A stretch of DNA of 12,257 nucleotides from PVC group bacterium (GTDB lineage Bacteria > GCA-001730085 > JADFSZ01): NCBI GenBank assembly GCA_022560555.1, contig JADFSZ010000034.1, positions 1 through 12,257 on the forward strand. The letters run 5' to 3'. Below are positions 1,096-12,257 of the stretch, piece after piece (position 1 is the stretch's first letter; each line of letters starts with the position of its first letter). A program made the translations under genes and the position numbers. Under the pieces are notes generated by a model. It was not told the origin of the DNA, did not search any database, and worked only from the letters and a program-made list of their open reading frames with translations.

Positions 1096-2646
1096 TTATG
1101 TATTTTTTTGGTAGAGCTTCGACCGGATATCATGCTTTTTAATCTTGTACCCCAGCATCCGTTCGGTGAGATCAAGCTCTTTCGCAGCATTTTTTTGGTG
1201 CCCCTTGACCTTTTTAAGGGTTTCAATGATCATTTCCTTTTCAATATTGTCTAAATACCGAACAAGGCCCTTTCTTTGAAATTGCGTGTGGGTTGTTTCT
1301 GCCGTCTGAAGCGATGGCGGCAAATGATGGGCCCGGATCACATCCTCATCACAAAGAAGAACCGCTCGTTCCATACAATTTTCAAGTTCTCTGACATTCC
1401 CCGGCCAATGATAACTCACAAGCATATCAATCGCGGGGGTAGAGATTCTTTTTACCGTTTTAAAATTTTCCTTGACGTACTTTTCAAGAAAATGCTCTAC
1501 CAAAAGGATAATGTCGTCTTTACGCTCCCGAAGAGGCGGAAGATATATGGGAAAAACATTGATGCGATAATACAAATCTTCCCTGAATTCCTTCTTCTTA
1601 ATAGCTTCTTCTAAATTTTTGTTCGTTGCGACAATCACACGGATATTTATTTTGATCGTATTGCGCCCGCCCACTCTTTCAAACTCACGCCCTTGAAGCA
1701 CACGCAGTAGTTTGATCTGAAGTGCGTTCGAGAATTCTCCGATCTCGTCTAAAAATATCGTTCCTCCATCCGCCAATTCAAATCGGCCCATTTTTCGCTC
1801 CGTGGCTCCCGTAAATGCTCCTTTCTCATGACCAAAAAGTTCGCTCTCAAGCAAGGATTCCGGCATAGCTGCGCAATTCATCTTAATAAATGCCTTATTC
1901 GCCCGAGGAGAGCTGTAATGAACCGCGTTGGCAACAAGCTCTTTGCCTGTGCCGCTTTCTCCGCGAATCAAAACTGTGGTTGTGCTCGAAGCCACCTGAT
2001 TGATGAGGGCGTACACCTGATTCATGCATCCGCTGTTCCCGACAATACCTTCAACTTGGTAGCGTTCCTTGAGATTCTCCCTCAAGCGAATATTTTCATC
2101 AAATAGCTCTTTTTTTTCTTCTTCGACCAATTGATGAAGTTTTAAAGCTTGTGCGATAAAAGAGGCAACAATATTCAAAATTTTAACGATATCAATAAGC
2201 ACAGCCTTATCGTCAAACTCTTTGTCCACGCTCAGGGCCCCCACAACCCTTTTGTCCATCCGGATCGGCACACATACAAAAGATCGTTTTTTGACAGAAG
2301 TTGACGCGTGAGGACGTGTCCGAAACAAGAAACGCGGATCTTTTCTAATATCAGGCACAATAATCGCCTCTCCTGTTTCCACAACCTTTCCGGTGATCCC
2401 TTCGCCAACCTTGTACACCCCGCGCTGTTTGGCGGCTTCCGTAATGCCATGAGCAACGGTGACCTTCAGCAATTCCTGCTGAGGATCCAGGATCGTGATC
2501 ATGCCCCGGCGAAGCTTGGCATGGATTTCCAGCAGATGAAGAATGGACTCCAGTGTGTGCCTGATGTCCAAGGACTCAACAAGAACCATGGCAATATCAT
2601 GCAGAAGATCAACTTCTTGAAAATGGGCGCGCTTCTTTTTACTCAT
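1096..2646 (-). CDS. Sigma54-dependent transcriptional activator with GAF-AAA+-HTH (NifA-like) architecture and no receiver domain
   Basis: 516-aa ORF. The N-terminal GAF-like region is about aa 12-168 (nt 2143-2613). Walker A GESGTGKE is at nt 1939-1962. The sigma54-contact motif GAFTGA is at nt 1804-1821. Walker B is GGTIFLDEIGE. The C-terminal Fis-type HTH is NAAKELDLTERMLGYKIKKHDI (about nt 1123-1239). Confidence 0.93.
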   Translation of the reverse strand: MSKKKRAHFQEVDLLHDIAMVLVESLDIRHTLESILHLLEIHAKLRRGMITILDPQQELLKVTVAHGITEAAKQRGVYKVGEGITGKVVETGEAIIVPDIRKDPRFLFRTRPHASTSVKKRSFVCVPIRMDKRVVGALSVDKEFDDKAVLIDIVKILNIVASFIAQALKLHQLVEEEKKELFDENIRLRENLKERYQVEGIVGNSGCMNQVYALINQVASSTTTVLIRGESGTGKELVANAVHYSSPRANKAFIKMNCAAMPESLLESELFGHEKGAFTGATERKMGRFELADGGTIFLDEIGEFSNALQIKLLRVLQGREFERVGGRNTIKINIRVIVATNKNLEEAIKKKEFREDLYYRINVFPIYLPPLRERKDDIILLVEHFLEKYVKENFKTVKRISTPAIDMLVSYHWPGNVRELENCMERAVLLCDEDVIRAHHLPPSLQTAETTHTQFQRKGLVRYLDNIEKEMIIETLKKVKGHQKNAAKELDLTERMLGYKIKKHDIRSKLYQKNT

Positions 2647-2816: not shown

Positions 2817-4259
2817 TTAGATATCGTAGTAGAGAAAGAACTCATAAGGATTGGGACGTAAATCAACCGCCTGAACTTCCTTTTCAAGCTTATAATTGAT
2901 CCACGTATCAATGGCATCTTTTGTAAAAACATCACCTACGAGCAAGAACTCATGATCCTTTTCAAGTTCAAGTAAAGCATCTCTCAAAGAGTAAGGCGTC
3001 TTTTCCACCTTGGCTAATTCTTCGGGAGGAAGATCATAAAGATCTTTGTCCAGCGGCTGTCCTGGATCAATTTTATTCTGAATCCCGTCCAGCCCGGCCA
3101 TTAGCATCGCGGAAAACGCAAGATACGGATTGCAGCTCGGATCCGGAAATCTTGCTTCAATGCGCTTTGTTTTCGGGTTTTCTGAATACATGGGAATTCT
3201 GACCGCGGCAGAACGGTTTCGGCTTGAGTATGCGAGATTAACCGGAGCTTCAAAACCGGGAACCAGACGTTTATAGGAATTCACCGTTGGATTTGTCAAA
3301 GCCGTTAAAGCTTTGGCATGCTTCAAAATTCCTCCGATATAGTGGAGCGCCATCTGAGAAAGTCCCGCATAACCATCTCCGGCAAAGAGCGGTTTTCCTT
3401 CTTTCCACAAAGACATGTGCACATGCATTCCTGAGCCGTTATCACCAAAAATCGGCTTCGGCATGAATGTCGCCGTATATCCGTGTTTTTGGGCAACGTT
3501 TTTAATAGTGTACTTATAGATAAGAAGTTTATCTGCCATATCCACCATCGGCATAAATCGCATATCTATTTCAGCCTGACCGGATGTGGCCACTTCATGG
3601 TGATGAACTTCGATATCCACACCAAGATTGAGAAGTTCCACAACCATCTCGCTTCTCAAATCCTGAAATTTATCGCTTGGAGGGCAAGGAAAGTATCCCT
3701 CTTTATGACGCAGCTTATGTCCTTTGTTGCCTCCCTCTTCTTCCCGACCGGTATTCCATGCCGCTTCAATGGAGTCGATTTCATAGAAGGCTCCGCGAGG
3801 TTCAGCGGAATATTTAACCGAATCAAAAATAAAAAACTCGGCTTCCGGACCAAAAAAGGCCTGATCCGCAATTCCGGTGGATATTAGAAATTTTTCCGCT
3901 TTAACGGCAATATTTCTTGGATCCTTCTGGTACAATTCCTTCGTGATGGGATCTTTGATCGCACAAATCATAAAAACGGTTTTGTGTTTTGTAAATGGAT
4001 CCAACTGAGCTGTTTCAGCCAAAGGCATAACCAACATGTCACTCTCATTTATCGCCTTCCATCCTCGAATGGATGATCCGTCAAATCCCAATCCTTCTTC
4101 AAAGCTCGAAGCATCAACCGCATGCGCCGGCATACTAAAATGCTGCCACGTGCCCGGAAAATCCAAAAACCTAAAATCAACAAACTGGACCCCTTCTTTC
4201 TTAATGAAATCAAGGACCTCTTTTGGCGAATGAAATCGCCTTCCATTTCCACCTGACAT
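2817..4259 (-). CDS. glnA: Glutamine synthetase type I-beta
   Basis: Collinear with enterobacterial GlnA. Shared motifs include FGPEAEFF, the GSI-beta insertion [85 protein letters not shown] and the adenylylation loop [11 protein letters not shown]. The track starts the ORF at 4265, but AGGAGG (4266-4271) abuts that ATG with zero spacing. The ATG at 4257-4259 has a 6-nt spacer, so I call 4259 as the start. Confidence 0.95.
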
Positions 4260-4326
4260 GTCCATCCTCCTTCGTAGGTTTTTGTTTTAAAAGCGAATCC
4301 ATAGATTTATCGGAAAGGCTGTTTAC

Positions 4327-4343
4327 AGCAGAATTCATGCCAA
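4327..4343 (-). promoter_or_regulatory. Sigma54 (-24/-12) promoter of glnA
   Basis: The minus strand reads TTGGCATG-AATT-CTGCT, against the consensus YTGGCACG-N4-TTGCW. The predicted 5' UTR is about 55-60 nt, similar to that of the porin promoter. Confidence 0.65.
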
Positions 4344-4498: not shown

Positions 4499-4627
4499 TT
4501 TTCGAAAGAGGCCTCTCATCCATGTACTCAAATAAAGGAGCAAATCATAAGTCTCTTTAGGCAAAATGTCAAAAGAATTCTTCCGGCCTCCTTCCATCTT
4601 AAAAGAACCGGATTTAAGCCGTAAAAA

Positions 4628-4636: not shown

Positions 4637-4693
4637 CATAATGGATCAGAAACCGCGCAGCCCCAAACTCAAATACAGACCCTGTGGACCTGA

Positions 4694-7600
4694 ATGACTC
4701 CTCTTGATGAAAAAAAATTAGCACAAATCAAAAGCCGACTCCCCCATATCGATGAGACCTTGATTCAAAATCATATTGAGCGATTAGAAGAAGATTATTT
4801 CCTTGAATTCTCAGATGAGGACATCATCACTCATATTCGGGAAATATCTCACCTCTCAACAGACACCGCCTGCAAAATGATTTTCCAAAGATCAAATAAA
4901 GATTTCACAATTACCGTTATTGGGTTTGACACCCAAGGTTCTTTCGCGGTCATTTGCGGCCTTCTGACCTCGGCCGGATTTAATATCCAAGAAGGCAAAA
5001 GCTTTACATATTCAAAATCAACTCCCAAAACCATATCCAAAACAAAAAAACCCATGAGACGCTCTCAAGCCCGGGAGTTGGCCAGACAAACATTCTATCT
5101 TGAAAGAAAAAAATTCATTACCCAACTCCATTGTGTTCACGCGGCTCCGGATACACTTGCAAAAGATTTTGAATCCCAATTTCAATCGCAGCTTAACCTG
5201 TATCACGGATACCTCATCGACAACAAAATTAAGGAAGTTCAAAAGGAGATCAATCGCCTTATTCAGGACCACCTGATAGGTCTGGTTCCCAAAAATACAT
5301 CTTCATCCGCCCATCGGTTGCTGCCGATTGATATTCAGTTTGAAAAAGAGGCAAATCAGACAGTTTTGCATATTACGGGACCGGACACGCCCGCATACCT
5401 TTTTTCTTTGGCCAACGCTTTGACCCTGCATGGAATTTCAATTCAAAAAGTCTCTGTCAAAACAAAAGGCGCCTTCGTGGATGACAAAATCACTATCACA
5501 GACATGTACGACCGTCCCCTAACCCAGCCCCATTATTTACAAAAACTTAAAATGGCTGTTGCCAGTATCAAACAGTTTACACATCTTCTGCCTCTCGCAA
5601 CCGATCCGACGGCGGCTATGCATCAATTTCATCAATTTATCGATGACTTAATGACCAAATCTAATTACGCCCTATCCCCGTTTGATAAAGACGAAAATTT
5701 ACTAATGGCCTCTCTGGCAAAAATTTTCGGCGCAAGACCTCACATTTGGGAAGACTTTATTCGCATGCAGCATGAAAATCTGCTTCCTTTTCTTAAAAAT
5801 ATCGGTCATCTTGAAAAGTCAAAATCCAAAGAGGTTATGCTTGATGAACTTCAAAATTCATTATCAAAAGTCAAAGGATTCGACCGACAAGTCAAAGCCA
5901 TCAATGAATATAAAAATGAAGAGCTTTTTCGTATTGATCTTGTTCACTTAATCTATCCCAGTATTACCTTTATTGAATTTGCCGAACAGCTCACACAGCA
6001 CGCCGAGGCAATTATCAGCACAACAGCAAATTTAATTTACCACTATTTAGAAGAGCAACACGGGACCCCCTCGAACAAGGACGGTTCCGTCTGTTCTTTC
6101 GCCTTATTCGGCCTTGGAAAATTCGGAGGGCAAGAACTTGGTTATGCTTCAGATTTAGAAATTGTTTTTCTCTATGATGAAAATGCTCAAACAAATCATT
6201 CTAATAATGCCATTGGTAACTCGGTTTTTTTTATCAAATTCGTGCAAAATCTTTTAAAGGCTCTTCCGGCAAAAAACGCGGGCATATTCGAAATTGATCT
6301 TCGCCTGCGCCCGCACGGAAAAAAAGGTCCTCTAGCAAGCTCCTTGAACCGCTGGGGTGAATATTACCTCAAAGATGGGGGCGCTTATGATTATGAACGT
6401 CAAGCTCTCATTCGCTTGCGTCCGATTTATGGCAACACGGATTTTTGTGGCAAAGTAATGGAAATTCGAGATCAGATTATTTATTCCGAGAGTTCCATCT
6501 CTGTCAAAAACTCCATCGAGATCCGCAATAAACAGATTCTTAAAAATGTGACTCCGGGAAAAATCAATGCAAAATTTTCCAAGGGGGCTTTAACCGATAT
6601 TGAATACGCCATTCAGTATCTTCAACTGGCGCATGCCCATCAGCACCCAAAATTGCGGACACCAAATACTATTCAGGCTATGGAATATATGCTCGAAACA
6701 GACATTCTCACACCGACAGAATTTGAAAAACTATATAATAATTACGCTTTTTTACGTCGTGTGATCAATGCTCTACGCATGGTGAGAGGTAACGCAAAAG
6801 ATCTTGAAATCCCTGACCTGGCTTCCGAAGAGTTTATTTTTCTCGCCCGCAATCTTGGATATGTGTCAAAGGAATCCCAATCGGCCGAAGACCAGCTTTT
6901 CAAGGATATCGAGCTTACACTTAAAACAACATATGTTTTTTACAAAGCAAAATTCATCGAAAAGAAAGAAACTGCCTTTGAGGAATCGGGGCTGCCGGGG
7001 CTTCTGCTACAGAAAAAAATGAGCGAAAATGAAGTCACGCGAGTGTTGGCATCCCTCAAGGTTCAGGACACAAAAAAAATTCACGGTATCCTGAAATCAC
7101 TTATTCAAGAAGTCGAAGACAAAAACACCCTCGTTGCGGTCCTTGTCCTTGCGGAAAGACACATCCGCCGATCACCCGATCCGGATAAAGTCATCGTTAA
7201 CTTCGGAAATTTTATTATTGAAAGTTCAAAACAGCATATCTCTCTTAAACAGTTGTTGTATCAGCCAAAATACATTGAGATACTCATCACTCTTTTCGGT
7301 TTTAGCGATTATCTAACAATCATCCTAACCAAGAATCCTCAACTCCTCCTTACGATCACAAACGACCGTCTCCTTCTTTACAACAAAACTCACGAACATT
7401 TCGCTTCTGAACTCAGTTCCTGCGCGCCGTTTACAAATGATATTCGAGAAAATTTACGCATGATCCAAAAATACAAAAATTCCGAAACTCTCAGAATCGG
7501 CCTCAGGGACATTTACCTCAACAAACCATTCGAACAAATTGTTCGTGAATTGTCCGATTTGGCCGACACGATTGTAGATCGTATTTACCGAAATATTCTT

Positions 7601-8479
7601 ATACAGAAGGATCATGAGGAACTATTGAGACATCAATCTATTATTGCTTTAGGCAAACTTGGTTCAAGAGAGCTCAATTACAGTTCTGATATCGACCTTG
7701 TTTTTGTCCACACCGGGAAAGATACACATATCAAAGCGCTCAACAAAGTAAATATACAATTAATTCAGCTTCTGACGACCCCTTCGGATCTAGGACAACT
7801 TTTTCGTGTAGATACACGCTTAAGGCCCTATGGGAAATCCGGGACTTTGAGCAGCTCTGTTGAATTTTATAAGAAGTATTACAAAGAAAAAGCCGAAGGA
7901 TGGGAGATACAGTCATGGTTAAGGGCTAGATGCATATCCGGAAATTTTGAAATGGGAGAAAAACTGATCAGCCAAATTCAAAAGTCCGCCATCCAACCTA
8001 AGAATTATCAAAATATTCATGCCAGTATAAAGACAATGCGTCAAAAAACTCTTAAGCAACTTTCCCAAAAAGATCTTCTTGAACGCGATGTCAAAAATGG
8101 CCGTGGAGGTATTCGAACTATTGAGATGATCGTCCTCAATCTTATTTTACAACACAGCAATACACACCCGACTCTTCAGACAGGAAACATCCTTTTAGGT
8201 TTGGAAAAACTTATTCATTTTCGAATTATCGAACCAGAGATTTATCGGACATTAAAAAAAAGTTATAAGTTTTTAAGAACAGTAGAACACCGTATTCAGC
8301 TTCTCGGTTTGCAACAACGTCACGTTTTGCCTGATGACACAGAAGAGCTCGGACGTATTGCAAAACGAATGGGTTTTGAAGACCGCCTAGATAACACCGC
8401 CCTAGACCAATTCAAAAAGACTTATCAATCGATCACCGAACAGATTCAAACTCTGTCTGAAAAGCATCTGGAAAGCTAA
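4694..8479 (+). CDS. glnE: Glutamine synthetase adenylyltransferase / adenylyl-removing enzyme (GlnE) with an N-terminal tandem ACT-domain extension
   Basis: 1261-aa ORF with two GlnE-type nucleotidyltransferase cores. The first is GLGKFGGQELGYASDLEIVFLYD (nt 6110-6178) followed by FEIDLRLRPHG. The second is ALGKLGSRELNYSSDIDLVFVH (nt 7646-7711) followed by FRVDTRLRPYG. Each is followed by a GlnE helical domain (KFSKGALTDIEYAIQYLQL; VKNGRGGIRTIEMIVLNLIL). N-terminal ACT-like segments are FTITVIGFDTQGSFAVICGLLTSAGFNIQEG (aa 71-101) and TVLHITGPDTPAYLFSLANALTLHGISIQKVSVKTKGAFVDDKITITD (aa 223-270). An in-frame TGA at 4691-4693 precludes an upstream extension. Confidence 0.9.
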   Translation: MTPLDEKKLAQIKSRLPHIDETLIQNHIERLEEDYFLEFSDEDIITHIREISHLSTDTACKMIFQRSNKDFTITVIGFDTQGSFAVICGLLTSAGFNIQEGKSFTYSKSTPKTISKTKKPMRRSQARELARQTFYLERKKFITQLHCVHAAPDTLAKDFESQFQSQLNLYHGYLIDNKIKEVQKEINRLIQDHLIGLVPKNTSSSAHRLLPIDIQFEKEANQTVLHITGPDTPAYLFSLANALTLHGISIQKVSVKTKGAFVDDKITITDMYDRPLTQPHYLQKLKMAVASIKQFTHLLPLATDPTAAMHQFHQFIDDLMTKSNYALSPFDKDENLLMASLAKIFGARPHIWEDFIRMQHENLLPFLKNIGHLEKSKSKEVMLDELQNSLSKVKGFDRQVKAINEYKNEELFRIDLVHLIYPSITFIEFAEQLTQHAEAIISTTANLIYHYLEEQHGTPSNKDGSVCSFALFGLGKFGGQELGYASDLEIVFLYDENAQTNHSNNAIGNSVFFIKFVQNLLKALPAKNAGIFEIDLRLRPHGKKGPLASSLNRWGEYYLKDGGAYDYERQALIRLRPIYGNTDFCGKVMEIRDQIIYSESSISVKNSIEIRNKQILKNVTPGKINAKFSKGALTDIEYAIQYLQLAHAHQHPKLRTPNTIQAMEYMLETDILTPTEFEKLYNNYAFLRRVINALRMVRGNAKDLEIPDLASEEFIFLARNLGYVSKESQSAEDQLFKDIELTLKTTYVFYKAKFIEKKETAFEESGLPGLLLQKKMSENEVTRVLASLKVQDTKKIHGILKSLIQEVEDKNTLVAVLVLAERHIRRSPDPDKVIVNFGNFIIESSKQHISLKQLLYQPKYIEILITLFGFSDYLTIILTKNPQLLLTITNDRLLLYNKTHEHFASELSSCAPFTNDIRENLRMIQKYKNSETLRIGLRDIYLNKPFEQIVRELSDLADTIVDRIYRNILIQKDHEELLRHQSIIALGKLGSRELNYSSDIDLVFVHTGKDTHIKALNKVNIQLIQLLTTPSDLGQLFRVDTRLRPYGKSGTLSSSVEFYKKYYKEKAEGWEIQSWLRARCISGNFEMGEKLISQIQKSAIQPKNYQNIHASIKTMRQKTLKQLSQKDLLERDVKNGRGGIRTIEMIVLNLILQHSNTHPTLQTGNILLGLEKLIHFRIIEPEIYRTLKKSYKFLRTVEHRIQLLGLQQRHVLPDDTEELGRIAKRMGFEDRLDNTALDQFKKTYQSITEQIQTLSEKHLES

Positions 8480-8493: not shown

Positions 8494-10335
8494 TCATTTT
8501 CCCGTGGGCTTTTGTCCCCGGCTAACACGTTTTCTCTCGACTTCCTTTAAATGCAGTTTTCTCAAGCGAATATTTTTTGGAGTGATTTCAACAAGTTCAT
8601 CGTCTTCGATAAATTCCAGAGCAAATTCAAGAGTGATTTCTCTAGGGGTAATCAGCTGCATGGCGTCATCCGAACCCGCGGCGCGCATATTGGTGAGTTT
8701 TTTACCTTTCAGCACATTCACAACGAGATCAGCCCCTTTATTATTGACCCCAACAATCATCCCTTCATAGAGTTTCTTTCCGGGCTTCACAAACATTTCC
8801 CCTCGAGGCTGCAAATTAAAAATCGAATATCCCACAGCTTCCCCTTCCGATTGCGAGATAAGAACCCCGCTCTGACGTTTCGGCATATCACCTTTGTAGG
8901 TTTGATACTCAAGAAAATTCTGATACATGATCCCGGTTCCGCGTGTCATCCGCAAGAAGTCAGATCGAAAGCCAATCAAAGCGCGAGACGCAATCACAAA
9001 ATCCATCCGGCAGCTTCCGGTTGAGGTTGTCTTCATGTCTTTCATTTCGGCCTTTCTGACTCCGAGAGCTTCCATGACCGACCCTTGATATTGACTCTCA
9101 ACTTCAATCACAAGCTCTTCGACCGGTTCATGTGTTTGCTCACCCATTTTTTTCAATATGACTTTGGGACGTGATACCTCGAGTTCATACCCTTCCCTTC
9201 GCATGGTCTCGATTAATATCGCGAGATGAAGTTCTCCCCGACCTGAGACCTTAAATCGCTCTCCATTCTCTACTTCTTCAATCTTGATCCCCACATTGAC
9301 CATCGCTTCATGAAGAAGCCGTTCACGAATATGCCTGGAAGTCAAAAAACGCCCTCCGTCTTTACCGGACATCGGGCTGGTGTTGTGAGAAAAGTTCATC
9401 GAGATCGTTGGTTCATCGATTTTGATGGCAGGCAAGCCCTTAGGTTTTTCGTTATCCGCGATGGTTTCTCCGACTTCAACCCCCTCGACTCCCGCGATCA
9501 AAATAATATCTCCGGCTACGGCCTCTTCGGTCTCAACACGGGTCAGCCCGCAATATTTCATAATTTTTGTGATTTTCCCTTTAGTAACAGAGTTGTTCCG
9601 TTTTACGCACGCCACAGCATCTCCGACGGAAACCGATCCGCAGAACACCCGTCCGATCGCTATGCGGCCGACAAAGGAGTCGTAATCCAGCATTGTGACT
9701 AGCATTTGAAGCGGTAATTCCGGATCGGCCACGGGAGGCAAAACACGATGAAGAATAGTTTCTAGAAGGGGCTTTATAGAATCACGTGCGTCATCCAAAT
9801 CGATCACAGCATACTCGTCTTTACCCGAAGCATAGACAATCGGAAAATCCAGCTGTTCATTTGTGGCATTCAGTTCACAAAACAGATCAAATACGCTATC
9901 CGCTACTTCATCGGACCTCGCGCTCGGCCGGTCAATTTTGTTGATCACAAGAATGGGTTTTAGATGAAGCTCAAGGGATTTTTTCAGTACATATTTCGTT
10001 TGCGGCATGGGCCCTTCGGAGGCATCGACTAAAAGCAGAACTCCGTCAACCATCTCAAGGATCCTCTCCACTTCTGATCCAAAGTCCGCATGCCCCGGCG
10101 TGTCCACGATATTGCATTGGACCCCTTTAAACTCAAAGGAAGCAATTTTCGAAAATATCGTAATTCCCCGTTCCTTTTCGATAGGGTTCGAATCCATCAC
10201 GGTTACTTCACCCTCTTTAAACTCATACGCGCCCGTGTATTTGAGGATCGCGTCCATCAGTGTTGTTTTTCCATGATCAACATGAGCAATAATGGCCACA
10301 TTACGTACATTTTTTCTTCGCTTAAGATTCGGCAT
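8494..10335 (-). CDS. typA: Translational GTPase TypA/BipA
   Basis: 613-aa ORF. The G domain has AHVDHGKTTL, DTPGHADFGSEVER and NKIDR. The overall layout is EF-G/LepA-like with the TypA-specific C-terminal region. It ends at TGA 8494-8496. Confidence 0.95.
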   Translation of the reverse strand: MPNLKRRKNVRNVAIIAHVDHGKTTLMDAILKYTGAYEFKEGEVTVMDSNPIEKERGITIFSKIASFEFKGVQCNIVDTPGHADFGSEVERILEMVDGVLLLVDASEGPMPQTKYVLKKSLELHLKPILVINKIDRPSARSDEVADSVFDLFCELNATNEQLDFPIVYASGKDEYAVIDLDDARDSIKPLLETILHRVLPPVADPELPLQMLVTMLDYDSFVGRIAIGRVFCGSVSVGDAVACVKRNNSVTKGKITKIMKYCGLTRVETEEAVAGDIILIAGVEGVEVGETIADNEKPKGLPAIKIDEPTISMNFSHNTSPMSGKDGGRFLTSRHIRERLLHEAMVNVGIKIEEVENGERFKVSGRGELHLAILIETMRREGYELEVSRPKVILKKMGEQTHEPVEELVIEVESQYQGSVMEALGVRKAEMKDMKTTSTGSCRMDFVIASRALIGFRSDFLRMTRGTGIMYQNFLEYQTYKGDMPKRQSGVLISQSEGEAVGYSIFNLQPRGEMFVKPGKKLYEGMIVGVNNKGADLVVNVLKGKKLTNMRAAGSDDAMQLITPREITLEFALEFIEDDELVEITPKNIRLRKLHLKEVERKRVSRGQKPTGK

Positions 10336-10771: not shown

Positions 10772-11605
10772 TCAATCAATACTTTTGATTTCGATCGACC
10801 GGATTTTATAATCACCCTCATAATAGTTCTCATGTGGCTCGCCTGTAACAAAATACTCCTGGTACTTTTTTTCAGTATGCCAGACTTCGTCAATCGGAAC
10901 ACGAGATTGCTCCAATAAAATACCTTTGTCATCTGAGACACTTAAAACATATTCGTAAGTTGTCTTTTCAATTTCGATTTTATACCAGGCGTCTTTTTGG
11001 TATTCCACACCTTTCACCCAATTAAACTCCCATTTATCGGTGCCACCATTATAGGAAACAAGCTCATTGTTTTCATCAAAATAGACCATAAATATCGGAT
11101 TCGGCATCCCATGCCCCCAAACGTTGTTATCCACATCGATAACAAGTTTGCGGTGCTGATGCCACCAGTCATTGGTATAATGTTCCGTCGGGGCCTGATC
11201 CGTAATCGCGATCAGATAACAGCCATTTTCATTTTTCGGCCCTTCTCGATACTCCTGATCACGGTTGTAGTTCTCAATATTTTTCAAATCATAATTGATT
11301 TGACCAATGACAACACTAACCTTGTATTTTTTTGGTAAATGTTGTGTCGATCGGATAATAGCCGAATCCCGGTAGGAATCTGACTTTTGCAGGGCGAATC
11401 CACTAAAACCATCAATGAGAAACGTCCCGCCTCGAAAGAGTTCAAACGTCAGTTGATTGTTCTTTCCAAAAGCTTTCCCATCCTCGGCAACAATCGGATC
11501 ATGGAATTCTTCTTTAAAATTATAGGCTCCATCCAAGCGAGTACATCCAATAAAGAGTCCGGCAAAGAACAAAAGAACAAAGCCGTATAGTATTTTATGG
11601 GGCAA
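10772..11605 (-). CDS. Hypothetical lipoprotein, 277 aa, probably beta-rich
   Basis: TTG start at 11603-11605 with AAGGAG (11612-11617) and a 6-nt spacer. The N-terminus MPHKILYGFVLLFFAGLFIGC fits a lipobox (L-F-I-G-C). The mature part is rich in aromatic and charged residues (TNDWWHQHRK, WGHGMPNPIF, WEFNWVKGVEY). I recognise no family. Confidence 0.75.
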   Translation of the reverse strand: MPHKILYGFVLLFFAGLFIGCTRLDGAYNFKEEFHDPIVAEDGKAFGKNNQLTFELFRGGTFLIDGFSGFALQKSDSYRDSAIIRSTQHLPKKYKVSVVIGQINYDLKNIENYNRDQEYREGPKNENGCYLIAITDQAPTEHYTNDWWHQHRKLVIDVDNNVWGHGMPNPIFMVYFDENNELVSYNGGTDKWEFNWVKGVEYQKDAWYKIEIEKTTYEYVLSVSDDKGILLEQSRVPIDEVWHTEKKYQEYFVTGEPHENYYEGDYKIRSIEIKSID

Positions 11606-11619
11606 GGGGGACTCCTTAT

Positions 11620-12081
11620 CTATTGAGGATAATCTAATTTGATAACAATATCTTGACTCATTTTGGTAAGCGAGATCGCAGAATTTGAAAATTTCGGTAC
11701 GCTCATCACGATCTTTTGTCCATTTAAAAATCCGACTCCTTCTGTCGGAAACCCCATCGGGCCCATACCAAGCCTTTTGTTGCGATTTTCATCATGAACA
11801 ACAGACACAGCATATTCCCCAAAGGGGATGCCCTCACATTCACCATCGATGCTCATTTGCCCAACTTCTAGTTCAATCCATTGAAATTCATAAGCATGTT
11901 CGATACGAGTAGGATAGCCTTTTGGGCTGTTAAAAAGTGAAACACCAATCATGCCGGCATGCTTGTTCATTCCCTCAACACGGACTAAAAGAATCGTATA
12001 ATCAATGTCTTCTGCTTGCGCAAGGGGAATTAGAAAAAACCCAGTCATTATGCCAAAAAATATGATTTTTAATTTTTCCAT
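11620..12081 (-). CDS. Secreted DUF2141-family protein
   Basis: Matches the DUF2141 pattern: VRVEGMNKHAGMIGVSLFNSPKGYP ... FGEYAVSVVHDENRNKRLGMGPMGFPTEGVGF. The signal peptide is MEKLKIIFFGIMTGFFLIPLAQA/ED. I prefer the ATG at 12079-12081 (AAAGGA 8 nt upstream) to the track's TTG at 12141, which would overlap the upstream gene. Confidence 0.8.
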   Translation of the reverse strand: MEKLKIIFFGIMTGFFLIPLAQAEDIDYTILLVRVEGMNKHAGMIGVSLFNSPKGYPTRIEHAYEFQWIELEVGQMSIDGECEGIPFGEYAVSVVHDENRNKRLGMGPMGFPTEGVGFLNGQKIVMSVPKFSNSAISLTKMSQDIVIKLDYPQ

Positions 12082-12122
12082 TTTAAGCATCCTTTGTTTT
12101 TTGAGCACATTTAGTTGACAGT

Positions 12123-12257
12123 TTATTGTAAAGCCACGCAAAAAACAATGCCTCCAATAAAAGCGTCAATAAAACCAAAAACAAAACCGATAAGACTGTC
12201 GACTAGAGTACGACTATATCCGGGATAGATACTAAAAATCCTGGCAACAATATCCTG
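12123..12257 (-). CDS. C-terminal 44 codons of a small membrane protein; N-terminus lies beyond the window end
   Basis: The reverse frame is open from 12257 to TAA at 12123-12125. Translation is ...QDIVARIFSIYPGYSRTLVDSLIGFVFGFIDAFIGGIVFCVALQ*, ending in a Gly-zipper-like hydrophobic helix. It has the same orientation as the DUF2141 gene and lies 41 nt upstream of it. Confidence 0.45.
   Translation of the reverse strand, partial: QDIVARIFSIYPGYSRTLVDSLIGFVFGFIDAFIGGIVFCVALQ

Follow-up and report, generated by a model that had tools for sequence, protein, structure and literature searches.

The stretch of DNA studied here, referred to as the window, is the whole 12,257-bp contig JADFSZ010000034.1 (assembly GCA_022560555.1) of a bacterium of the PVC group. 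An open reading frame (ORF) at 4694-8479 on the forward strand opens at the first start codon 3′ of an in-frame stop and encodes a 1261-residue protein, identical to the NCBI entry 'hypothetical protein IID04_02785 [PVC group bacterium]'. Pfam finds in this protein two GlnE domains (PF03710, E 1.1e-89) and two GlnD_UR_UTase domains (PF08335, E 1.7e-38). Adenylylation of glutamine synthetase (GS) by GlnE belongs to the textbook bicyclic cascade, in which metabolite input normally arrives via GlnD and PII. A typical GlnE both adenylylates GS and strips off the AMP by phosphorolysis, under regulation by PII, PII-UMP and glutamine. A preliminary description, made from the letters alone, had read the ORF as a GlnE with an N-terminal extension that carries two GlnD-like ACT domains, the first of them split by a Lys/Arg-rich insertion. 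The GlnE domains and the extension are there: the first PF03710 match starts at residue 340, which leaves about 335 residues upstream of the first nucleotidyltransferase (NT) domain. The remainder is not a canonical GlnE, its two NT halves standing in the opposite order. The domain architecture, which we regard as close to certain, is as follows.

4694 to 8479, forward strand: whole ORF, a 1261-residue ACT-bearing, domain-permuted GlnE (Pfam, homology search)
4694 to 4867, forward strand: leader of four short helices, residues 1-58, with a conserved H..RL...YF motif (AlphaFold2, alignment)
4871 to 5218, forward strand: ACT1, residues 60-175 (alignment, hhalign, AlphaFold2, Foldseek)
5009 to 5104, forward strand: basic insertion in the beta2-beta3 loop of ACT1, residues 106-137 (alignment, hhalign, AlphaFold2)
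5330 to 5596, forward strand: ACT2, residues 213-301 (Pfam, NCBIfam, hhalign, AlphaFold2)
5699 to 7003, forward strand: NT1, residues 336-770, GlnE-type nucleotidyltransferase with GlnD_UR_UTase helical domain, divergent and weakly AT-C-like (Pfam, profiles, neighbour-joining, fold)
7004 to 8476, forward strand: NT2, residues 771-1261, GlnE-type nucleotidyltransferase half of the AT-N (deadenylylating) type (Pfam, profiles, motifs)

The evidence for the ACT pair is weak on the single sequence and strong with family information. On the window's own sequence Pfam gave 24.2 bits for ACT_4 (PF13291) and 14.7-18.6 bits for ACT (gathering score 27), in ACT2 only; ACT1 was not detected by the Pfam ACT models. 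A sequence search of the extension against the PDB returned insignificant matches only (ACT of the AHAS small subunit, E 0.018). Residues 1-340 alone found nothing in a word-indexed homology search, their own identical entry included, a limitation of the tool and not a sign of uniqueness. The module alignment, comprising residues 1-340, 21 N-terminal regions of homologues with the same layout and 10 internal modules of homologues with another layout, was far more informative. PF01842 was matched individually by 24 of the 32 aligned modules (best E 1.4e-12), and ACT_ACR9_3rd (PF24931) by 13. The NCBIfam GlnD models aligned residues 209-289 to the last ACT domain of GlnD, and hhalign matched the module family to both of the ACT domains that E. 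coli GlnD carries (96%, E 5e-9), colinearly over the pair. The hidden Markov model (HMM) of the module also picked up the C-terminal ACT pair of genuine GlnD proteins encoded near relatives (69-94 bits). By these profile comparisons the ACT pair is homologous to the C-terminal ACT pair of GlnD.

AlphaFold2, run on the module alignment, predicted the structure of the extension with confidence (predicted local distance difference test, pLDDT, 90.7; predicted template modelling score, pTM, 0.88). The model consists of two beta-alpha-beta-beta-alpha units, residues 60-175 and 213-301, each with a fourth strand placed ahead of beta1 (60-67 and 213-219). In ACT1 these elements are the strands 60-67 and 70-78, the helix 83-93, the strand 96-105, the insertion, the strand 140-149 and the helix 159-175; in ACT2 they are the strands 213-219 and 222-230, the helix 235-245, the strands 249-258 and 261-269, and the helix 279-301. 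In a Foldseek comparison with the PDB the leading matches were all ACT or ACT-like domains, the N-terminal region of the large glutamate dehydrogenase (GDH180) coming first (E 1.6e-5). Further matches were the regulatory domain of threonine dehydratase, the GL3/R ACT-like domain (TMt 0.79), aspartate kinase, SerB, 2NYI and PGDH (entries 7jsr, 9d2r, 9c7n with TMt 0.79, 3l76, 5is2, 2nyi and 1sc6). The alignment shows near-invariant residues in ACT1 (D79, G89, G101), and conserved positions in ACT2 (a DTP-x-[FY]-L motif and D264), which terminates in the conserved junction KQFTHLLP (residues 292-300). The two GlnD-like ACT domains of the preliminary description were thus borne out by NCBIfam, hhalign, AlphaFold2 and Foldseek; in Pfam its GlnE and PF08335 domains were found directly, whereas the ACT domains stayed below threshold on the protein itself and became significant with the homologues. 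The strings that it had quoted are located at residues 71-101 (nt 4904-4996), 107-132 (nt 5012-5089) and 223-270 (nt 5360-5503).

The insertion that had been seen in ACT1 is also real. It lies between beta2 and beta3, contains 9 Lys/Arg in 32 residues, and is predicted as a lower-confidence loop (106-122) followed by a helix (123-137). In the hhalign alignment to GlnD it appears as a gap, and its length among the homologues varies from 0 to more than 60 residues. In the Omnitrophota proteins it is absent and ACT1 is a contiguous textbook ACT domain. The leader helices (6-14, 21-30, 33-38 and 41-51, pLDDT 90-98) are present in most family members and missing from the Omnitrophota ones. A shorter sub-variant of about 1155-1165 residues (P0098, P0114, P0118 and P0120; loci L015, L033 and L035), found in Omnitrophota and relatives, has neither leader nor ACT1 insertion, and its ACT pair begins at about residue 10. 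The leader and the basic insertion are therefore dispensable additions.

Both catalytic halves carry an intact Pol-beta-type motif, G-x-G-K-x-G-G-x-E-L-x-x-x-S-D-x-[DE]. In NT1 it reads GLGKFGGQELGYASDLE (residues 473-489, within nt 6110-6169) and ends in DLE; in NT2 it reads ALGKLGSRELNYSSDIDL (residues 985-1002, within nt 7646-7705) and ends in DID. The D-x-E form of NT1 is invariant, being found in 101 of 101 family members with a motif match, and D-x-D was found in 117 of 118 members for NT2. The protein was cut into Next (1-335), NT1 (336-770) and NT2 (771-1261), and each part was compared with the 120 best homologues. The order was NT2-like, Next-like, NT1-like in 96 of the 120, and Next, NT1, NT2, as in the window, in 22 including the window protein itself. 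Across the 96 proteins of the former group the NT1 profile averaged 484 bits on the last domain and 166 on the first, whereas the NT2 profile scored 407 bits on the first and 215 on the last. When ten diverse canonical GlnEs were added to a neighbour-joining analysis, NT1 and the 'last' domains formed a clade in 200 of 200 bootstraps. These comparisons show that the order of the NT halves in the window protein is reversed, relative both to canonical GlnE and to most ACT-bearing relatives. Since the halves stand in the opposite order, the 'N-terminal extension' is the same module that lies between the halves in the larger sister group.

The ten canonical GlnEs had been gathered by tblastn on a plasmid collection. 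Canonical glnE could be retrieved from it because a number of the PLSDB 'plasmid' records, 2-12 Mb in size, are evidently chromosomal. An E. coli 'GlnE' of 1387 residues (P0278) has additional CYTH and CHAD domains and is probably a read-through fusion with the adjacent ygiF.

The type of NT2 can be assigned from several concordant comparisons. The NT2 HMM scored higher on the AT-N half in all ten canonical GlnEs, the motif ELNYSSDIDL fits the pattern ELN-x-SSD-[IV]-D present in all ten AT-N halves, and the best NCBIfam match of NT2 covers positions 4-497 of PRK14109. On this sequence evidence NT2 is of the AT-N type and presumably deadenylylating. NT1 forms a divergent clade with the invariant motif ELG[YF]ASD[IL]E. 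NT1 has its best stretch within the C-terminal half of each of the three NCBIfam GlnE models, its motif is similar to the ELGY-x-SDLD of gamma- and beta-proteobacterial AT-C, and it holds the C-terminal position in the NT2-ACT-ACT-NT1 relatives. That NT1 is the adenylylating (AT-C) half is presumed, with moderate strength only, because HMM, distance and fold tests do not discriminate between the two types.

The extension belongs to a widespread family and is not a one-off. An exhaustive profile search of 1.84 billion representatives yielded 358 clusters at E ≤ 1e-30 and 3216 at E ≤ 1e-10, the latter probably including GlnD. Among the best 150 matches there were 43 with the order Next-NT1-NT2, 30 with NT2-Next-NT1 and 48 with Next-NT1, these last including both genuine split forms and fragments; all others were fragments. 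The species representatives of GTDB were scanned with two short peptide patterns; 232 loci were confirmed, and 80 were kept and domain-mapped. The maps showed about 39 loci with the window layout, 3 with NT2-Next-NT1 and about 30 split ones (Next-NT1, about 770 residues), some of these on closed chromosomes. ACT-bearing GlnE, abbreviated ACT-GlnE, thus occurs in three layouts, ACT-ACT-NT1-NT2, NT2-ACT-ACT-NT1 and split ACT-ACT-NT1. It was found in at least 12 phyla or groups, almost all records being metagenome-assembled genomes (MAGs): Verrucomicrobiota, Kiritimatiellia, Planctomycetota (including a Schlesneria paludicola record), Acidobacteriota, Desulfobacterota (including Smithella), Omnitrophota, Gemmatimonadota, Latescibacterota, Zixibacteria, Sumerlaeota, Nitrospirota and Chitinivibrionales. 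Wherever a protein or locus runs on past its ACT pair, NT1 comes directly next.

Five Acidobacteriota (Vicinamibacteria) MAG loci (L012, L027, L041, L045 and L049) encode an ACT-ACT-NT1 protein of 735-1100 residues and, convergent and immediately downstream, have a second gene for NT2 alone (AT-N type, about 550-800 codons). At the split loci of Gemmatimonadota, Latescibacterota and Zixibacteria no NT2 gene was found within 6 kb.

Among about 8 million full texts no paper was found that mentions an ACT domain alongside GlnE or glutamine synthetase adenylyltransferase, and for GlnE in connection with circular permutation only an unrelated HEPN survey came up. The precomputed Pfam domain lists of some relatives already include ACT, so the co-occurrence of the two is implicit in the databases. 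ACT-GlnE with swapped halves is a variant of GlnE that is undescribed in the literature yet widespread.

Comparison with canonical GlnE (E. coli adenylyltransferase, ATase; 1V4A for AT-N and 3K7D for AT-C) shows the same two PF03710 plus PF08335 halves, their G-x-G-K-x-G-G...D-x-[DE] motifs intact. The NT1 model can be superposed on either E. coli domain, with template modelling (TM) scores of 0.71-0.78, NT2 has the AT-N signature, and both systems are tied to a type I GS with an adenylylatable Tyr. The differences lie in length and order. ACT-GlnE is about 315 residues longer, its leader and ACT-ACT being without counterpart in the central R region of the E. coli enzyme. The canonical order is AT-N, central R, AT-C, whereas in the window protein the AT-N-type half is C-terminal and the ACT pair stands in place of R or in addition to it. 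Its other half belongs to the divergent clade with DxE instead of DxD. A descent of the ACT pair from the R domain was considered and rejected, because hhalign found no homology to the central region of E. coli GlnE (residues ~410-620).

With GlnD the protein shares the homologous, colinear ACT pair, the PF08335 helical domain and the nitrogen-sensing pathway. In contrast to GlnD, its ACT pair is N-terminal of its NT domain instead of C-terminal, and ACT1 has the basic insertion. The GlnD equivalog model TIGR01693 scored 128 bits on it, against a cut-off of 519. Since it has no HD domain by Pfam and its NT domains are of the GlnE type, the window protein is, as judged from its domains, not a GlnD; bona fide glnD genes, moreover, coexist with its relatives. 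In short, ACT-GlnE has the parts of GlnE and a sensor module of the GlnD type, and departs from GlnE in domain order and NCBIfam scores.

The closest systems are the NT2-ACT-ACT-NT1 GlnEs of about 1200 residues from Planctomycetota, Chloroflexota and Acidobacteriota (e.g. Schlesneria paludicola, L008), with the same three orthologous modules, the DxE/DxD pair and the KQFTHLLP junction, and the split ACT-ACT-NT1 proteins of about 770 residues from Gemmatimonadota, Latescibacterota, Zixibacteria and Acidobacteriota, with orthologous modules and the same ACT-ACT-NT1 junction. In these relatives NT2 is N-terminal, encoded by a separate gene or absent nearby, and they carry automatic annotation only. 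Plant ACR11 and the Chlamydomonas alpha-amylase AMA2 offer a more distant parallel, GlnD-like ACT domains serving there as glutamine-responsive modules on or with enzymes of nitrogen/carbon metabolism (PMC11190351, PMC3173338). The ACT_ACR9_3rd matches of the ACT-GlnE modules recall these proteins; the catalytic partners differ, and nothing points to direct descent. The 180-kDa large glutamate dehydrogenase of M. smegmatis (7JSR, 9HV0), which gave the best Foldseek match, likewise has multiple ACT-like domains N-terminal to a nitrogen-metabolism enzyme. Here the global TM score is low (0.24-0.34), identity is 12-15% and the catalytic domain is unrelated.

The presumed substrate is encoded next to the glnE ORF.

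2817 to 4265, reverse strand: glnA, type I glutamine synthetase, presumed substrate (TIGR00653, motif)

This glnA is divergently transcribed, 428 bp upstream of the glnE ORF, and scores 684 bits with TIGR00653 against a cut-off of 429. Its adenylylation-site motif (nt 3050-3018, reverse strand), with DLYDLPPEE within it, contains Tyr410. Among the loci of the window layout glnA was adjacent and on the same strand in 19 of 39, and among all loci fetched it lay within 6 kb in 31 of 83. That GS is the target of the enzyme is very probable.

We propose, with a probability of about 0.55, that the window protein is a GS adenylyltransferase/adenylyl-removing enzyme of a distinct ACT-bearing GlnE subfamily, gated by a metabolite through its ACT pair. 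In E. coli GlnE the C-terminal domain AMPylates GS, the N-terminal domain de-AMPylates it, and PII sets the balance (PMC12409994). A passage of PMC11190351, citing Zhang et al. 2010, states that the glutamine response of GlnD needs its ACT domains. In the proposed mechanism the ACT pair would bind a metabolite reporting nitrogen status, most likely glutamine as in GlnD. The ligand-bound pair would allosterically activate the attached NT1, NT1 would adenylylate Tyr410 of the neighbouring GS, and NT2 would reverse the modification. Such a built-in input may add to PII control or, in some lineages, replace it. The ACT-ACT-NT1 unit is invariant and also exists as a stand-alone protein, which suggests that the ACT pair gates NT1 in particular. 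Glutamine as the ligand is predicted by analogy with GlnD, at slightly less than even odds. To our knowledge no glutamine site has been mapped on ATase itself.

Several observations weigh against this proposal. The protein falls below all NCBIfam GlnE equivalog cut-offs (PRK11072, 432.8 against 487; PRK14109, 425.2 against 625; PRK14108, 363.1 against 724). The NT1 family HMM prefers AT-C in only five of the ten canonical GlnEs, the neighbour-joining/distance analysis places NT1 equally far from the two canonical halves, and the NT1 model fits 1V4A (TM 0.78) and 3K7D (TM 0.71-0.73) about equally. Two close homologues (L003 and L005) lack an adjacent glnA. Homology to GlnD does not fix the ligand, as ACT domains bind many different ones. 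Finally, glnB and glnD sit beside some relatives, and PII control is probably retained at least there. Clusters in Desulfobacterota MAGs have the order glnB-glnD-glnA-glnE(ACT) in L085 (181-9252), glnD-glnB-glnA-glnE(ACT) in L064 and glnD-glnA-glnE(ACT) in L061, so that in these loci, at least, ACT-GlnE coexists with the GlnD/PII relay. The window contig itself contains neither glnB nor glnD.

The nature of the effector leaves room for a different reading, which we consider unlikely overall: the ACT pair is real, and it binds another amino acid or a nucleotide, or it is a scaffold for dimerization or GS docking, with the basic ACT1 loop touching an acidic partner. ACT domains are promiscuous in their ligands and are often dimer interfaces. 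In structure the pair is best matched by the ACT-like domains of the large glutamate dehydrogenase and the Ile-binding domain of threonine dehydratase, with no glutamine-binding structure among them. The sub-threshold scores of the window's own ACT domains mark them as divergent, and this reading would also give a role to the variable basic insertion, otherwise unexplained. On the other hand, in sequence the pair is closest to the ACT domains of GlnD, colinear over both, and the protein has its place in the same pathway under glutamine control, with linkage to glnA. The near-invariant Asp and Gly, moreover, lie in the beta1-alpha1 region, the usual ligand site of ACT domains.

It is far less probable that the enzyme modifies PII or some protein other than GS, as an analogue of GlnD built from GlnE-type NT domains. 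The shared ACT pair, the partial matches to GlnD equivalog models and the resemblance of the split ACT-ACT-NT1 proteins to a stand-alone sensor-transferase would fit such a role. However, beyond the ACT pair the GlnD matches lie in the PF08335 helical domain, which is common to GlnD and GlnE, both NT domains are of the GlnE type in Pfam and in fold, and the HD domain is missing. The genuine glnD genes beside relatives, the strong linkage to glnA and the conserved Tyr motif of GS likewise speak for GS as the target.

An artefact, whether from a wrongly placed start codon, a chimeric assembly or a fusion by frameshift, for which one could cite the 12-kb MAG fragment, the weak GGA resembling a Shine-Dalgarno sequence before the ATG and the sole ACT-less homologue (P0009, 949 residues), is effectively refuted: the layout recurs, conserved end to end, in 21 other top-matching proteins and about 39 GTDB species representatives from several phyla, closed chromosomes included, the extension is conserved and confidently folded from residue 1, and the gene of P0009 begins at nt 19 of its own contig and is therefore truncated. 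Residues 1-60 being conserved and folded, the start of the extension is genuine and no start-codon artefact.

This large protein family, found mostly in uncultured bacteria, has the sensing module of GlnD fused directly to one half of GlnE, and so offers a natural system in which direct gating of a protein-AMPylating enzyme by a metabolite can be tested. The permuted, inserted and split layouts, as they occur in nature, already provide a test of whether the two opposing activities depend on a fixed arrangement. A further step, that ACT-GlnE is a self-contained sensor-effector for glutamine or another nitrogen-status signal, its ACT pair hard-wired to the adenylylating half and one polypeptide reading the metabolite and setting GS activity with no GlnD/PII relay, seems doubtful. 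Under that reading the N-terminal, C-terminal, separate or absent position of NT2 would mean that the opposing activities are regulated as independent modules, and not by the fixed signalling within the molecule that has been proposed for E. coli ATase. ACT-GlnE is at present annotated as 'hypothetical' or as plain GlnE, and with its scores below the NCBIfam cut-offs a dedicated model would help to annotate nitrogen regulation better in Verrucomicrobiota, Desulfobacterota, Planctomycetota, Acidobacteriota, Gemmatimonadota and other phyla.

The surroundings of glnA contain three further features.

1096 to 2646, reverse strand: activator with GAF, sigma-54 AAA+ and helix-turn-helix domains, 3′ of glnA and on the same strand (NifA equivalog, 548 bits against 528.85)
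4327 to 4342, reverse strand: sigma-54-like -24/-12 element TGGCATGAATTCTGCT, lying about 62 nt upstream of the start of glnA (without significance over the whole window, plausible by position only)
4544 to 4572, reverse strand: sigma-70-like promoter TTGACA-17-TATGAT (11/12), facing glnA in the divergent intergenic region (consensus match only)

The sigma-54-like element reads TGGCAT-N5-CTGCT (4342-4327). Together with the sigma-70-like promoter farther upstream it resembles the glnAp1/glnAp2 pair of E. coli, neither match being significant alone. A second sigma-54-like match, TGGCATGTTGCTTGCG, lies at 983-968 on the reverse strand, just downstream of the activator gene. It falls within about 800 bp at the left end (286-1095) that contain no ORF longer than 61 codons on either strand and no Rfam match; Rfam gave no matches anywhere in the window. 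At 4676-4692 (reverse strand) a terminator-like hairpin, a 7-bp stem followed by TATTTGAGTT, abuts the start codon of glnE, and may just as well form within the 5′ end of the glnE transcript. Downstream, typA/bipA (8494-10335) is convergent to glnE. Beyond it, an ORF of 277 codons with a TTG start (10772-11605, reverse strand), which matched no Pfam or NCBIfam model, adjoins the gene of a DUF2141 protein (11620-12141, reverse strand).

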